From assembly GCF_000027125.1 (NCBI RefSeq), contig NC_017626.1: a DNA stretch of 64,000 nt, one strand, 5' to 3'. The position numbers were made by a program, and so were the translations under genes. Within the stretch, counting starts at the first letter, position 1, and the number at the start of each line of letters is the position of its first letter. Below are positions 33,242 to 41,004 of the stretch, piece by piece. The notes beneath the pieces are model-generated. The model was not told the DNA's origin and made no database searches. It saw only the letters and a program-made list of their open reading frames with translations. This DNA comes from Escherichia coli 042. Its GTDB lineage: Bacteria; Pseudomonadota; Gammaproteobacteria; Enterobacterales; Enterobacteriaceae.

Positions 33242-34744
33242 ATGCTGAAAAGGAAAAAAGTAAAACCAATTACCCTTCGTGATGTCACCATTATTGATGA
33301 CGGTAAACTGCGTAAAGCCATTACCGCAGCATCACTGGGTAATGCAATGGAATGGTTTGATTTTGGTGTTTATGGTTTTGTTGCTTACGCATTAGGTAAA
33401 GTTTTTTTCCCGGGGGCTGACCCCAGCGTGCAGATGGTTGCTGCACTTGCCACTTTCTCCGTTCCCTTTCTGATTCGACCGCTTGGCGGACTCTTCTTTG
33501 GTATGTTGGGCGATAAATATGGTCGCCAGAAGATCCTCGCTATCACTATTGTGATTATGTCGATCAGTACGTTCTGTATTGGCTTAATACCGTCCTACGA
33601 CACGATTGGTATTTGGGCACCGATTCTGCTGTTGATCTGTAAGATGGCACAAGGTTTCTCGGTCGGCGGTGAATATACCGGGGCGTCGATATTTGTTGCG
33701 GAATACTCCCCTGACCGTAAACGTGGATTTATGGGCAGCTGGCTGGACTTCGGTTCTATTGCCGGGTTTGTGCTGGGTGCGGGCGTGGTGGTGTTAATTT
33801 CGACCATTGTCGGCGAAGCGAACTTCCTCGACTGGGGCTGGCGTATTCCGTTCTTTATTGCTCTGCCGTTAGGGATTATCGGGCTTTACCTGCGCCATGC
33901 GCTGGAAGAGACCCCGGCGTTCCAGCAGCATGTTGATAAACTGGAGCAGGGCGACCGCGAAGGTTTGCAGGATGGCCCGAAAGTCTCGTTTAAAGAGATT
34001 GCCACCAAACACTGGCGCAGCCTGTTGACATGTATTGGTCTGGTAATTGCCACCAACGTGACTTACTACATGTTGCTGACCTATATGCCGAGTTATTTGT
34101 CGCATAACCTGCATTACTCCGAAGACCACGGGGTGCTGATTATTATCGCCATTATGATCGGTATGCTGTTTGTCCAGCCGGTGATGGGCTTGCTGAGTGA
34201 CCGTTTTGGCCGTCGTCCGTTTGTGCTGCTTGGTAGTGTTGCACTGTTTGTGTTGGCGATCCCGGCGTTTATTCTGATTAACAGTAACGTCATCGGCCTG
34301 ATTTTTGCCGGGTTACTGATGCTGGCGGTGATCCTTAACTGCTTTACGGGCGTTATGGCTTCTACCTTGCCAGCGATGTTCCCGACGCATATCCGATACA
34401 GCGCGCTGGCGGCGGCATTTAATATTTCGGTGCTGGTTGCCGGTCTGACGCCAACACTGGCGGCCTGGCTGGTCGAAAGCTCGCAGAATCTGATGATGCC
34501 TGCCTATTACCTGATGGTAGTGGCGGTGGTTGGTTTAATCACCGGCGTAACCATGAAAGAGACGGCAAATCGTCCGTTGAAAGGTGCGACACCGGCGGCG
34601 TCAGATATACAGGAAGCGAAGGAAATTCTCGTCGAGCATTACGATAATATCGAGCAGAAAATCGATGATATTGACCACGAGATTGCCGATTTGCAGGCGA
34701 AACGTACTCGCCTGGTGCAGCAACATCCGCGAATTGATGAATAA
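33242..34744 (+). CDS. proP: ProP, osmosensing proline/glycine betaine:proton symporter (MFS)
   Basis: Start chosen at MLKRKKVKPITLRDV (500 aa); 12-TM MFS with C-terminal coiled-coil (DIDHEIADLQAKRTRL). Confidence 0.95.
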   Translation: MLKRKKVKPITLRDVTIIDDGKLRKAITAASLGNAMEWFDFGVYGFVAYALGKVFFPGADPSVQMVAALATFSVPFLIRPLGGLFFGMLGDKYGRQKILAITIVIMSISTFCIGLIPSYDTIGIWAPILLLICKMAQGFSVGGEYTGASIFVAEYSPDRKRGFMGSWLDFGSIAGFVLGAGVVVLISTIVGEANFLDWGWRIPFFIALPLGIIGLYLRHALEETPAFQQHVDKLEQGDREGLQDGPKVSFKEIATKHWRSLLTCIGLVIATNVTYYMLLTYMPSYLSHNLHYSEDHGVLIIIAIMIGMLFVQPVMGLLSDRFGRRPFVLLGSVALFVLAIPAFILINSNVIGLIFAGLLMLAVILNCFTGVMASTLPAMFPTHIRYSALAAAFNISVLVAGLTPTLAAWLVESSQNLMMPAYYLMVVAVVGLITGVTMKETANRPLKGATPAASDIQEAKEILVEHYDNIEQKIDDIDHEIADLQAKRTRLVQQHPRIDE

Positions 34745-34794
34745 GCTGAAACGGATGGCCTGATGTGACGCTGTCTTATCAGGCCAATTGAAGT

Positions 34795-34811
34795 CTTAAG
34801 GTTCACTTAAT
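34795..34811 (+). promoter_or_regulatory. PmrA (BasR) box upstream of pmrR
   Basis: CTTAAGGTTCACTTAAT is a hexamer direct repeat with 5-bp spacer, matching the PmrA box pattern CTTAAT-N5-CTTAAT, about 45 bp upstream of the pmrR ATG. Confidence 0.7.
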
Positions 34812-34855
34812 CTCTGACGCGCATACTCTCCTCCAGGTTAACGGAGGAGAGTGCA

Positions 34856-34945
34856 ATGAAAAACCGTGTTTATGAAAGTTTAACTACCGTGTTCAGCGTG
34901 CTGGTGGTCAGCAGCTTTCTTTATATCTGGTTTGCCACGTACTGA
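34856..34945 (+). CDS. pmrR: PmrR, 29-aa membrane peptide (LpxT inhibitor)
   Basis: ATG at 34856 preceded by GGAGGA; encodes MKNRVYESLTTVFSVLVVSSFLYIWFATY; below the ORF-track size cutoff; its 3' end overlaps the convergent basS 3' end. Confidence 0.8.
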   Translation: MKNRVYESLTTVFSVLVVSSFLYIWFATY

Positions 34946-36012
34946 TCTTTCTTCAGCCGTACCCAGGCCCGCGTGCCGGAAGTCTCTTGCCGGTTTTGCA
35001 GGAAAAACTGCCCGTGATGCAACTGTGTAATGCGGCTGACAATACTTAACCCCAGACCAATCCCGCCATAACGGCTGTCCATACGTACAAACGCTTTACT
35101 CAACTCCCCGCATTTACTCTCATCAATACCCGGTCCTTCATCTTCAACGGCCATGACCGCTCCGCCATCTTCTTGCAGCTTAATCATAATGTTGCTGCCT
35201 TGCGGGCTGTAACGATGGGCGTTTTCTACCAGGTTTCGCAATAACATCCGCAGCAGGGTTGCATCACCTTGAACGGTGATGTCGGCGGCGCTCTCTGGCA
35301 ATAGCAGGGTTTGCTGTCGCTGGTCGAGCATGGTACTGAGTTCGTCATACGAGGGGAGAATGACATCTTCCAGCAGTTTTACATGTTGATAATTACCGGA
35401 AGAAAATGACTGTCCGGCACGCGCCAGTTGCAGCAGCTGGGAGACACTCTCCATCATCTGATCAAGCCGTGCCACTAACGGTGCTACATCAATGTGATGC
35501 GTTTTCGCCAGCAGTTCCAGATGCAAACGCACCCCCGCCAGTGGCGTTCGCAGTTCGTGCGCGACGTCAGCGGTAAACAACCTTTCGTTATCCAGCGTGC
35601 TGGTCAGGCGACTGACCAGATCGTTCAACGCCGAAACCACCGCTTCGATTTCGAGGGTGGCGCTGTGAATGGCAATAGGCGTTAAGTTGTCGGCGGTGCG
35701 CGCTTCCAGCTCTTTTTGCAGCTCCGCCAGCGGCCGGGTGATGCGGCGTACCGCCTGATAGCAGATAAATAGCGTCAGGCTGACCATAAAGACGCCGGGG
35801 ACGATCAGGCTGGCGACCGCCTCGCGGATCTCACGCATGATGTGGCGATCGTTGTTGCGATTGTCGCGTAGCGCCTGCTCAAACAGCTGAATCTGCTCGG
35901 TACTTTCATGCCATAGCCAGAAGACGCTGATCAGCTCAAACACCAACAAAATGGCCCCAATGGTCAATATCAGCCGTTGGCGCAGCGATATTGGTCGGCG
36001 CAGAAAACGCAT
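34921..36012 (-). CDS. basS: BasS (PmrB) sensor histidine kinase
   Basis: HisKA and HATPase motifs (HELRTPL, GIGLGLSIV); start uncertain between 36012 and 36021. Confidence 0.9.
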   Translation of the reverse strand: MRFLRRPISLRQRLILTIGAILLVFELISVFWLWHESTEQIQLFEQALRDNRNNDRHIMREIREAVASLIVPGVFMVSLTLFICYQAVRRITRPLAELQKELEARTADNLTPIAIHSATLEIEAVVSALNDLVSRLTSTLDNERLFTADVAHELRTPLAGVRLHLELLAKTHHIDVAPLVARLDQMMESVSQLLQLARAGQSFSSGNYQHVKLLEDVILPSYDELSTMLDQRQQTLLLPESAADITVQGDATLLRMLLRNLVENAHRYSPQGSNIMIKLQEDGGAVMAVEDEGPGIDESKCGELSKAFVRMDSRYGGIGLGLSIVSRITQLHHGQFFLQNRQETSGTRAWVRLKKDQYVANQI

Positions 36013-36021
36013 CAGATTCAA

Positions 36022-36690
36022 TTAGTTTTCCTCATTCGCGACCAGCATATAGCCAAATCCGCGCACGGTGCGGATACGGGCTTTGCCCACTTTGTCGCGC
36101 AGATTGTGGATATGCACTTCCAGGGTGTTGGTCGAGGGTTCATTGTCCCAGTTATAGATGTCGTTGTAGAGAATTTCCCGATGCACCGGGCTGCCTGCTT
36201 TAAGCATCAGGCGCGACAGCAGAGCATATTCTTTGGGCGTCAGAATCAGTTCTTCTCCGCTCATCCATACCTGGCGGCGACCCATATTCAGCGTCAGATT
36301 GCCAACAATCAGCTCACTTTCGCCCTGATTATTATGGCGTCGTAGCAGGGCGCGGATACGGGCGTGTAACTCTTCCAGCGCAAAAGGCTTCACCAGATAG
36401 TCATCGGCACCGACATCCAGCCCGGCGATTTTGTCGGTCAGCGTATCGCGAGCGGTGAGGATCAGTACCGGCAGGGTGTATTTTTTCTGCCGGATACGGG
36501 CGAGAAAATGCAGTCCATCTTCGTCGGGTAACCCTAAATCCAGTACCACCAGGCTGTAATGACCGGCCTCAAGGCTTTGTTCCGCCATCCGCGCGGTTGT
36601 CACGCCATCGCACGCGTAGCCTTCGGTTTGCGCCGCCAGAATCAATCCCTGCAATAACAGCGTATCGTCTTCAACAATCAGAATTTTCAT
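36022..36690 (-). CDS. basR: BasR (PmrA) OmpR-family response regulator
   Basis: 222 aa with receiver domain (MKILIVEDD) and winged-helix output domain. Confidence 0.95.
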
Positions 36691-38330
36691 TCACTCACTC
36701 TCCTGCAAGTTTGCAGAATATCATCCGCAGCCTGGTAATACTTCGTCTCAACGCCAGTTAATCCCAATAGCGTGGAGAATAAATTATCTTGTGAATAGTG
36801 TTGCGTTTGCGCCTGTTTTTGCAGGCAGTTCTGGTCAACCTGATACCGTTTTTGATAATCCTCCGACAGCCACAGCAGCATCGGCACCTGTTTTTGGCTA
36901 TCCGGGGCGATGGCATAAGGCAGACCGTGCAGATAGATGCCATTTTCACCTAACGACTCACCGTGGTCAGAAAGATAAACCAGGCTGGTGGTGAATTTAT
37001 CCTGATGTTCTTTCAGCAGATTAATCGCTTTATCAACAATATAGTCGACGTAAACCAGCGTGTTGTCGTAAGTGTTCACCAGTTGCTCTTTGGTACAGGT
37101 CTGGATCTCGTTAGTGTCGCAGGTTGGGGTAAATTTCCTGAACTGCGGCGGATAGCGGTTGTAATAGGTCGGACCGTGGCTGCCGATGGTGTGTAAGACA
37201 ATCACGCCATCACCCTGCAGGTTATTGATGTACTCTTCCAGCCCGTGGAACAGCACTTCGTCATAGCATTCGCCGTTGATGCACTGACCAGGCAGATTCA
37301 GCGCGGTGACGTTCTGGTGAGGCACGCGGTCGCAGGCACCTTTACAGCCGCCATCGTTGTCATTCCACAGCACGTTGATGCCCGCTCGCTGAATGATATC
37401 CAGCACGCCTTCCTGGTGCTGTGCCAGCTCTTCTTTGTAGTGCTCACGCGGCATATCCGAGAACATGCACGGTACTGAAACTGCCGTTGCCGTGCCGCAA
37501 GATGCGGTATTAGGGAAATAGACCACGTTATCTTTTGCCAGCCGCGGGTTAGTTTCACGCGGATAGCCATTGAGGGAGAAGTTCTCCGCCCGCGAGGTTT
37601 CGCCGACAATCAGGATGGTCAAATTTTTACGTTTCTCTTTCTGCATTAATGGGTTGCGGTGCGCGTCTTCACCAATTCGCACCAGCGGCAGATTTGCCAG
37701 TCGCTGATGGGAGTACCATGACCAGCTGGCAACAATGCTGTTAGAGGGGCTTAAGGATTTCACCAGCTCTTTGTTGTTGCGGAACAATGAGGCGTAGTCT
37801 TTATAAAACAGTGCGGCGACCAGCAAAATCAGCAGTACAGACACCAGAATATTGGCTCCACGGAAAAGAACACTGCGCAGGCGCGAGGTGGCAGGTTTGA
37901 TTTTAATCCAGCAGGCAATCAGCGCAGCAAGCACGCCGCTGAATCCCAGCGTTAATAACATTTGCGGCGTCATCAACGCATAACTTTCTGCCGGAGTGGT
38001 ATCAATAATATTGGCAATCATCGAGCGGTCGATGACGATGCCGTAAGTCATTATGAAATATTGTGCAGCCGCGCCGACCAGAATAAACAGGCAGGCCAGC
38101 GGTCGATTAAGCCATAAGAAAGAGCTTAGTGTCAGGACAATATTAATCACGCTGAAGGCGACGACTGGCATCGACAAGAAAACCAGTACGTTATGCAGCG
38201 AGTCCAGCGGCAGCGCCTGCAACACCTGTTTAAAAAAGGCAATATTCAGGCAGATAGAGATATAAAAAGCGGCCAACAATAGCCAGGCGAGTAAATTCAA
38301 AGAGGGTCTTTTTAGTAGGCGCTTCAACAT
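36687..38330 (-). CDS. eptA: EptA (PmrC), lipid A phosphoethanolamine transferase
   Basis: Start chosen at [14 protein letters not shown] (547 aa); N-terminal TM domain plus sulfatase-like periplasmic domain; overlaps basR start. Confidence 0.9.
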
Positions 38331-38376
38331 CACGGTGTTTCCATCGAACAAAGTGCGCATATGCTCGCAAAGCAAA

Positions 38377-38393
38377 ATTAAGCCAACCTTAAG
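38377..38393 (-). promoter_or_regulatory. PmrA (BasR) box of the eptA-basRS promoter
   Basis: Minus strand reads CTTAAGGTTGGCTTAAT (hexamer repeat, 5-bp spacer), about 45 bp upstream of the eptA ATG and embedded in a perfect 14-bp inverted repeat. Confidence 0.65.
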
Positions 38394-38433
38394 TTCTTAA
38401 GGTTGGCTTTTATGTTTGCTGGATTAAGGGGAA

Positions 38434-39771
38434 TTAATCTTTGCTTATTGGTGCATCTAAGGGATACGGGTTTTTATGCAGCCGGTTGTAATTCAGCGCA
38501 TACATGGCGGTGATGACCATCAGGGTGACAAATGACCACATAACCTCTTTCGCCCCGGACCCCACCACGGCCCAGATGCAGTAGAGGAAGGCAATGGTAG
38601 TAACTGCCAGATATACCGGGCGTGCTTTACCAAAGTGGCCGTGGCCGAGCAGCAGTAACGCCGCACAGGTGTAAAGATATGGCACCAGTGTAAAGATGAC
38701 CGAGACGGAAGAAACCAGACCGAACTCTTTGGTCGCGTTTGGTGAAATGCTGCTGAGCTGGAAGATGGTCATCAAAATACCGACGATAATCAGCCCCGCC
38801 ACTGGCGTACCCGCTTTATTAACACGGGCAAAAATCGGTGGGAACAGTCCGTCATCGGCAGCGGCTTTCGCCGTTTGACCCGCCAGCAACGTCCAGCCGC
38901 CCAGTGAACCTAAGCAACCCGCAGCTGCGCAGAAGGAAACAATGGCCCCGGCGGTGTCACCCAACGCCATCCGTGCGGCATCACCGAATGGCGAGGCAGA
39001 AACGCGCAGTGCGGCATTAGGGATCATCCCCATAATCGCGGTGGTGGAGAGTACATAGCAAACGGCGGCAATCAATACCCCACCAATGGTGGCGATAGGG
39101 ACGTTGCGTTTCGGGTTTTTCACCACACCTGCGGCAACGGAGGCACTTTCCACACCGATGAACGACCACAGCGTAACGTTAAGGGTACTTTGAATTGCAC
39201 CGAAGGTGCCCAGGCCGCTGACGTTCCATGCCGCCATATAGGTTTCACCACGGAACCAGAACCAGCCAAATACGGCAATCCCGACGATGGGGATCAGCGC
39301 CAGCACGGTGGCAACGGCCTGCACGCGGGTGATCATTTTCGGACCGACAATATTCAGCAGGACGAAGATCCACAGCACCACGACGCAGGTGATGGTTAAT
39401 ACCAATGGATCTTTCAGAATCGGGAAGAAGTAACTTAAATAACCTACGCCAATGACCACCATGGCGATATTGCCGATCCAGCAGGCCAGCCAGTAGAGGA
39501 CGTTGGTTTGATAACCGAGAAACGGCCCAAAGCAGCGACGGGCGTAAGCGTAAGAACCACCAGGACTTGGGTCGAGGAACGACATTTTGGCGTATACCAT
39601 CGAGAGCCCCAGCGCACCGATAATCGTCACCAACCATCCATAAATGGCAATCCCGCCAGTGGAGGCCAGGTTTGCAGGTAACAGAAAAACACCTGACCCC
39701 ATAATATTCCCCGACACCATCAGGGTGACGGGGATTAAGCCCACTTTGTGAGCATCAGCATCCGAAGACAT
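38434..39771 (-). CDS. adiC: AdiC, arginine:agmatine antiporter
   Basis: 445 aa APC-family transporter; context with adiY and adiA. Confidence 0.95.
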
Positions 39772-40669: not shown

Positions 40670-41004
40670 ACATGTACTCCTGAGTGCGAATAAAAGACCA
40701 GTTCTCGCTAAAGCGAAGCGATACCGGGAAATGGTTATATAATTGTATGATGAATATAAACATGCATAAAAATAACGAGTTTTACTAATATTACAAATTT
40801 TTATAGTAATTTCTCATGTACATATTTTTTTACAGGCTAAAAAAAGGATAAATAACAGGCAAAAAAAAGCGCGGGGTGGGACCGCGCAAAAAGCATGACA
40901 TTTTTTGTTTGCAGCAATTTTTATGAAAACGTTGCCATACTTAAAAGGCCTCAAGCCAGGCGGCGTAATGTTATTTAACAATTACGCCTTCAGCGGAATA
41001 GTGG

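Follow-up and report, generated by a model that had tools for sequence, protein, structure and literature searches.

The 64,000-base stretch of Escherichia coli chromosome analysed here (the window) carries on its minus strand adiA, adiY, adiC (38434-39771), eptA (36687-38330), basR and basS, with gene names taken from the RefSeq annotation of matching E. coli genomes. The RefSeq K-12 annotation places no feature in the 103-bp gap between adiC and eptA. A repeat search located in this gap a perfect inverted repeat with two arms of 14 nt each (38380-38393 and 38396-38409) that are 100% complementary and lie 2 nt apart, and the same 30 bases occupy positions 4335640-4335669 of K-12 MG1655 (NC_000913.3); a search of Rfam returned no family at the palindrome. 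The original prediction had described the 14-bp palindrome and its 2-bp spacer correctly but had placed them at 38381-38410, one base too high; its wider range, 38377-38410, does cover the palindrome together with the adjoining PmrA box, and the hairpin that it put about 25 bp past the adiC stop begins 24 nt after it by coordinates. In the direction of transcription, the features of the gap are the following.

38434-38436, minus strand: adiC stop codon TAA, from the list of open reading frames and the annotation
38380-38409, no strand: palindrome AAGCCAACCTTAAG-tt-CTTAAGGTTGGCTT, 14-bp arms with a 2-bp spacer
38396-38409, minus strand: distal (adiC-proximal) arm of the palindrome, AAGCCAACCTTAAG on the minus strand, outside the canonical box and the 5' half of the predicted RNA stem
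38396-38401, no strand: distal hexamer CTTAAG, 2 bp upstream of the box, candidate inverted PmrA-type half-site
38377-38393, minus strand: PmrA/BasR box CTTAAGGTTGGCTTAAT, an exact match to YTTAAK-N5-YTTAAK made of the eptA-proximal arm plus three bases
38367-38381, minus strand: U-rich tail UUAAUUUUGCUUUGC following a GCC...GGC stem, match of the terminator scan (tail score 3.79)
38358-38363, minus strand: -10-like hexamer CATATG, 13 nt downstream of the box
38328-38330, minus strand: eptA start codon ATG as annotated in K-12, 46 nt from the end of the box

The palindrome is the sole perfect inverted repeat of at least 14 bp (loop of at most 8) across the window, for which the chance expectation is about 0.002 (64,000 x 9 x 4^-14). 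Among six sequences (the window and five Escherichia species representatives), 13 of the 14 positions of the distal arm are free of substitutions, whereas 13 of the 28 columns of the flank towards adiC are variable (Fisher p = 0.003), and no variation occurs in the 31 columns that run from base two of the distal arm through the last base of the box. Of 5426 complete E. coli genomes, 5385 (~99%) carry a 34-nt core unchanged, while the surrounding 96 nt differs in ~1,490 of the same 5,426. The core has a median of one copy per genome and at most two, and the palindrome was accordingly rejected as a REP/BIME element, being single-copy and lacking the many-copy hallmark of that class. In one strain, E. 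coli GN04171 (NZ_CP095520.1; L063, 2420-2560), the end of an IS1 element adjoins ...GGCTTTTATG with the breakpoint inside the adiC-proximal arm, and the deletion has removed eptA-basRS along with the genes as far as alsA; this single case provides no evidence that the palindrome is a hotspot.

Template switching can make arms match without selection. The distal arm could in principle be functionless, its symmetry having arisen by chance or through template-switch 'correction' of a quasipalindrome and having been kept through low divergence, and the fact that CTTAAG is its own reverse complement, and could thus seed a short inverted repeat, is consistent with such an origin. So is the outcome of a covariation analysis of the stem, in which paired cells amounted to 87.6% compared to 86.8% in shuffles, a difference that is not significant in a test with little power, since the 3' arm is frozen by the box. 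One compensatory pair, C-G to A-U, was seen in two sequences (L011 and L014). However, an arm that is invariant beside a flank with nearly half of its columns variable, the low chance expectation per window, and the retention of arms of 12-16 bp in separate lineages (Escherichia, C. amalonaticus, C. sedlakii, Intestinirhabdus and locus L024) all speak against a distal arm without function, which we regard as very improbable indeed.

The eptA-proximal arm coincides with a PmrA (BasR) box. The consensus for such boxes consists of two YTTAAK hexamers 5 bp apart (PMC10927774; PMC1525208), and the adiC-eptA gap contains an exact match on the minus strand, composed of the upstream half-site CTTAAG (38393-38388), the spacer GTTGG (38387-38383) and the promoter-proximal half-site CTTAAT (38382-38377). 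Of this box, the upstream hexamer, the 5-bp spacer and the CTT of the downstream hexamer belong to the palindrome, and the final AAT lies outside it. YTTAAK-N5-YTTAAK occurs twice in the window compared to 0.10 expected from shuffles. Among 54 orthologous loci, most have the anchor 61 +/- 2 nt away from the ATG (range 59-65), and the box, TTAAgGTTg.CTTAA, is invariant or nearly so in 47 distinct orthologous Enterobacteriaceae promoters, whose consensus reads TTAA...cTTAAgGTTg.CTTAA.........g..A..AT. The gene yjdB/pmrC is among the validated PmrA targets (PMC1525208), and in the pmrCAB operon the PmrA box overlaps the -35 region (PMC10570014; PMC1525208). Based on the exact consensus, the fixed distance to the ATG, the near invariance and this literature, we identify the element as the known PmrA site of the eptA-basRS (pmrCAB) operon, as had been proposed for eptA on the minus strand. 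A mirror-image box on the plus strand was considered and discarded: its second hexamer would be CTTTTA, without the TAA contacted by PmrA (PMC10570014), and the box therefore reads in the eptA orientation only. Downstream of the box, the A..AT columns that fall in the -10-like hexamer are invariant in the 47 distinct promoters. If CATATG is the -10 element, we infer that eptA transcription would start near 38351 (K-12 4335611), giving a leader of ~20 nt and placing the box at approximately -42 to -26.

Read as RNA, the same bases are predicted to form a hairpin. In adiC/eptA-sense RNA, the minimum-free-energy structure folds the palindrome into a 13-bp stem with a 4-nt loop, with an energy of -17 to -20 kcal/mol for the hairpin alone, and the 101-nt context folds to -31.3 kcal/mol (z = -4.8 compared to shuffles). 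The 3' flank of the stem is UUAAUUUUGCUUU, with six T in the first eight bases after GGC, interrupted by AA; in the eptA promoter, these tail bases double as the spacer that separates the box from the -10-like hexamer. A scan for terminator patterns matched the palindrome on both strands. We also scored all positions of the window with a d-score that combines stem energy and T-tail (the d'Aubenton Carafa formula with TransTermHP tail weighting and approximate absolute thresholds). The adiC-sense site, with a d-score of 8.8 and a stem of -15.3 kcal/mol for its 12-bp GC-closed core, ranks 19 among the terminator-like sites of the window and is, by score, a moderate intrinsic terminator. In Escherichia, the gap holds no other hairpin below -3.4 kcal/mol. 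The predicted adiC 3' ends fall at ~38371-38375 (K-12 4335631-4335635, minus strand), ~7-9 nt past the stem.

By the same d-score the opposite strand of the palindrome ranks 5: on the plus strand of this strain (38380-38424) the palindrome is followed by TTTTATGTTTGC and outscores the adiC-sense site. We rejected the plus-strand site as the real terminator, as its tail is not conserved (scores of 3.4-3.5 in other Escherichia and 2.2-3.2 in C. amalonaticus) and no plus-strand gene ends at the palindrome. The sense tail is conserved throughout the Escherichia/Citrobacter/Salmonella clade; it is also retained, as a T-rich tract, in lineages without the hairpin, and may therefore be conserved as a promoter spacer. 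A strand-specific wobble test, meant to show which RNA strand is under selection by comparing G-U with A-C mismatches (12 and 10 cells, respectively), revealed no asymmetry towards either strand.

We scanned genome contigs for EptA, which yielded 60 loci, with adiC directly upstream in 26 (Escherichia, Salmonella and most Citrobacter). Across these 26 loci, the stability of the palindrome hairpin drops as that of a second hairpin located between adiC and the box rises (Spearman rho -0.76, over about nine lineages and not phylogeny-corrected). Where the second hairpin is missing, as in Escherichia and C. amalonaticus, the palindrome folds at -15 to -22 kcal/mol. In Salmonella and the C. braakii group, where a REP-like second hairpin of -15 to -25 kcal/mol is present, the palindrome has decayed and folds at -2 to -4 kcal/mol; the remaining Citrobacter are intermediate. 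Such a pattern would be expected if selection on a hairpin at the 3' end had been relaxed. The GC-rich, REP-like inserts that Salmonella and most Citrobacter carry between the stop codon of adiC and the box (L006, L007, L010-L014, L016-L018, L022, L051-L053 and L055) form hairpins such as GCCCGATG...CATCGGGC and GGCCGGATA...TATCCGGCC, of -11 to -28 kcal/mol, and lengthen this interval, otherwise about 24 nt, to 52-68 nt.

None of the second hairpins has a T-tail, and so they may stand in for an element that stabilises the 3' end and not for a terminator. The palindrome would then act as an RNA hairpin without termination, a barrier guarding the adiC mRNA from 3' exonucleases as REP hairpins do, with termination or processing of the transcript taking place elsewhere. 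The REP-like, tail-less nature of the seeming replacements and the imperfect U-tract of the E. coli element point in this direction. However, scans by the usual criteria class the AA-interrupted tail of the E. coli hairpin as that of a terminator, nothing else in the Escherichia gap resembles a terminator ahead of eptA, and read-through would place eptA-basRS under adi control, of which we found no report in the literature searched. We consider a barrier without termination quite improbable.

We return to termination as the preferred role of the hairpin. The hairpin and its T-rich tail persist under other co-oriented upstream genes, namely a DUF2238/yjdF-like gene in Intestinirhabdus (L021) and a fumarase gene in C. 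koseri (L046), a distribution that fits an insulator before eptA rather than an adiC-specific element. The stem, the U-rich tail, the position after the stop codon, the conservation of the arm outside the box and the decay of the palindrome where another hairpin exists all argue for the adiC terminator that had been proposed, and on this computational and comparative evidence we judge a terminator role likely. Our literature search retrieved no 3'-end data for this site (the Term-seq and operon-map supplements examined have no adiC or eptA entry) and no paper on an overlap of box and terminator or on an adiC terminator. At a different set of loci, those of Kluyvera and relatives (L025, L031-L034, L039, L049 and L057), a co-oriented CofD-family gene runs to within a few bases of the distal hexamer and no hairpin intervenes, and with this layout read-through into eptA, or operon-like expression, seems possible.

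Conservation of the inner palindrome extends beyond the loci with adiC or a stable hairpin. The TTAA of the distal hexamer, 4 bp upstream of the TTAA in the first half-site of the box, does not vary across the 47 distinct eptA promoters from Enterobacteriaceae, whether or not adiC or a hairpin is present. These include 23 promoters without adiC upstream (Klebsiella, Raoultella, Kluyvera, Enterobacter and relatives), in which the upstream gene is of the CofD family, the hairpin reaches only -1.5 to -10 kcal/mol and no T-tract follows. Since the distal TTAA is kept in promoters that lack both adiC and a stable hairpin, a terminator role cannot wholly explain the inverted repeat, and part of the conservation of the arm must have another cause. 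The comparison thus indicates, for the inner palindrome, a further function at the DNA level that does not depend on adiC, a point that the original prediction had missed. The distal hexamer fits YTTAAK on the strand opposite to eptA in 39 of the 47 promoters and on the eptA strand in 17, and it looks like an inverted third PmrA-type half-site, at approximately -50 to -45, which is to our reading of these promoters a new finding. Candidate binders are PmrA in a different register, QseB, likewise an inducer of eptA (PMC10597456), and the RNA polymerase alpha-CTD. Pantoea and Tatumella either lack the distal hexamer or have it at variable spacing.

These features raise the question of whether the palindrome is mainly a DNA-level operator, with three PmrA-type half-sites (a distal inverted one, 2 bp, then the two direct ones), the distal site being used by a second binding mode of PmrA or QseB or by the alpha-CTD, and the longer arms and the hairpin in E. 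coli being incidental. The invariance of the distal TTAA in promoters with weak hairpins and no adiC, the preference of the distal hexamer for the inverted orientation, the induction of eptA by QseB and the repositioning of PmrA on DNA in the activation complex (PMC10570014) would all be in line with this reading. However, an operator accounts for 4-6 bp and leaves unexplained the other 8 bp (AGCCAACC) that do not vary within Escherichia, and it does not predict that the outer arm decays beside a REP-like hairpin. The E. coli arnB and pmrR boxes carry TATTAG and ATTGAA in place of a distal TTAA, which is thus not a general PmrA requirement. Moreover, the 8-bp offset matches neither the 11-bp PmrA repeat nor the 3-bp upstream shift of PmrA resolved by cryo-EM, and that shift, which we considered as an explanation for the distal TTAA, cannot reach it (PMC10570014). 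As the main role of the palindrome, an operator is possible but on balance doubtful; as a role of its inner part it is compatible with the terminator and not exclusive of it.

A more elaborate proposal joins the two. PmrA or QseB could occupy either a productive head-to-tail pair or a non-productive head-to-head pair of half-sites in a three-site operator whose bases double as the adiC terminator, coupling both processes. We hold this to be unlikely. If true, the operator would be a built-in brake on the autoregulated pmrCAB operon, and PmrA occupancy and adiC transcription would be linked in both directions, the bound protein acting as a roadblock and the terminating polymerase occluding the promoter, which would connect the arginine acid-resistance system to lipid A modification.

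Taken together, the evidence favours one stretch of DNA with two readings. As double-stranded DNA, the eptA-proximal arm plus AAT would be the PmrA/BasR box of the eptA-basRS promoter, at which a phosphorylated PmrA dimer would bind head-to-tail and take over the -35 contact; binding and -35 replacement are established for pmrCAB in the literature, and at this site they are deduced from sequence and conservation. As RNA, adiC transcripts would fold both arms into the stem-loop, followed by UUAAUUUUGCUUU, and most of them would end inside the eptA promoter spacer, so that termination would insulate eptA-basRS from acid-induced adi transcription. An older short inverted repeat, TTAA-N4-TTAA, which eptA promoters conserve at the DNA level, was probably the seed from which the palindrome grew outward, and extension of this repeat into a terminator stem in the Escherichia/Citrobacter lineage would be the simplest history. 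We conclude that dual use of the palindrome, as a PmrA box in DNA and as an adiC terminator in RNA, is plausible and probably correct. 'One element, two jobs' is a fair description, to which the adiC-independent, DNA-level role of the inner palindrome should be added.

The overlap of two known signals is tidy but fairly ordinary: both elements are of familiar kinds, and overlap of a terminator with the next promoter is unsurprising in short bacterial gaps. Its interest lies in the genes that it separates. The self-activating eptA-basRS operon drives chromosomal polymyxin/colistin resistance, adiC is part of an acid-induced system, and PmrAB is also responsive to mild acid. A terminator that is leaky or dependent on PmrA occupancy would let acid-induced adi transcription feed into PmrAB levels, and a tight one would be an insulator separating the acid and PmrAB responses. 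The most useful new lead is the conserved third half-site, a testable addition to the two-hexamer model of PmrA at its own operon. Neither the insulator nor the third half-site overturns anything.

Comparison with known systems shows which parts of this arrangement are familiar. With the PmrA-activated promoters of pbgP/arnB, ugd and pmrCAB, the eptA site, which is that of pmrCAB itself, shares the sequence, spacing and orientation of the hexamers, and its position upstream of eptA is fixed; unlike the E. coli arnB and pmrR boxes, which have neither a palindrome nor an inverted hexamer, it is embedded in a 30-bp perfect palindrome and preceded by a conserved inverted hexamer. It resembles intrinsic terminators, including those of the two-way type, whose stem is flanked by an A-tract on its 5' side and a U-tract on its 3' side, in having a stable stem-loop soon after a stop codon, a U-rich tail and matches on both strands, but its stem is unusually long with an A/U-rich centre, its U-tract is broken by AA, and its stem and tail are also the activator site and the spacer of the next promoter. 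Another such site lies between adiA and adiY, where a strong terminator-like hairpin, GCGCGGTCCCACCCCGCGC followed by T8 (~40870-40888, minus strand), comes after adiA and ranks 4 in the window; Rfam has no match at this hairpin, and the 3' UTR of Salmonella adiA yields the sRNA AdiZ/STnc1180 (bioRxiv 10.1101/2025.06.06.658255). The REP-like hairpins of Salmonella and most Citrobacter occupy the same place, the 3' end of the adiC mRNA, and are likewise stable stem-loops, but these GC-rich structures have no T-tail and do not overlap the box, whereas the E. coli palindrome is single-copy.

A further parallel is the proP/pmrR junction on the plus strand of the same window (34744-34856), where a co-oriented gene is likewise followed by a hairpin, an exact PmrA box and a PmrA-regulated gene. 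There, proP ends at 34744, a REP-like hairpin, GGCCTGAT...ATCAGGCC (34757-34785), lies between proP and the box, and the box, CTTAAGGTTCACTTAAT (34795-34811, plus strand), which is the second exact match in the window, precedes a pmrR-like ORF of 29 amino acids (34856-34945) within an Rfam STnc630 match (34787-34952). At proP/pmrR the hairpin and the box are adjacent but separate, whereas at adiC/eptA the two are fused.
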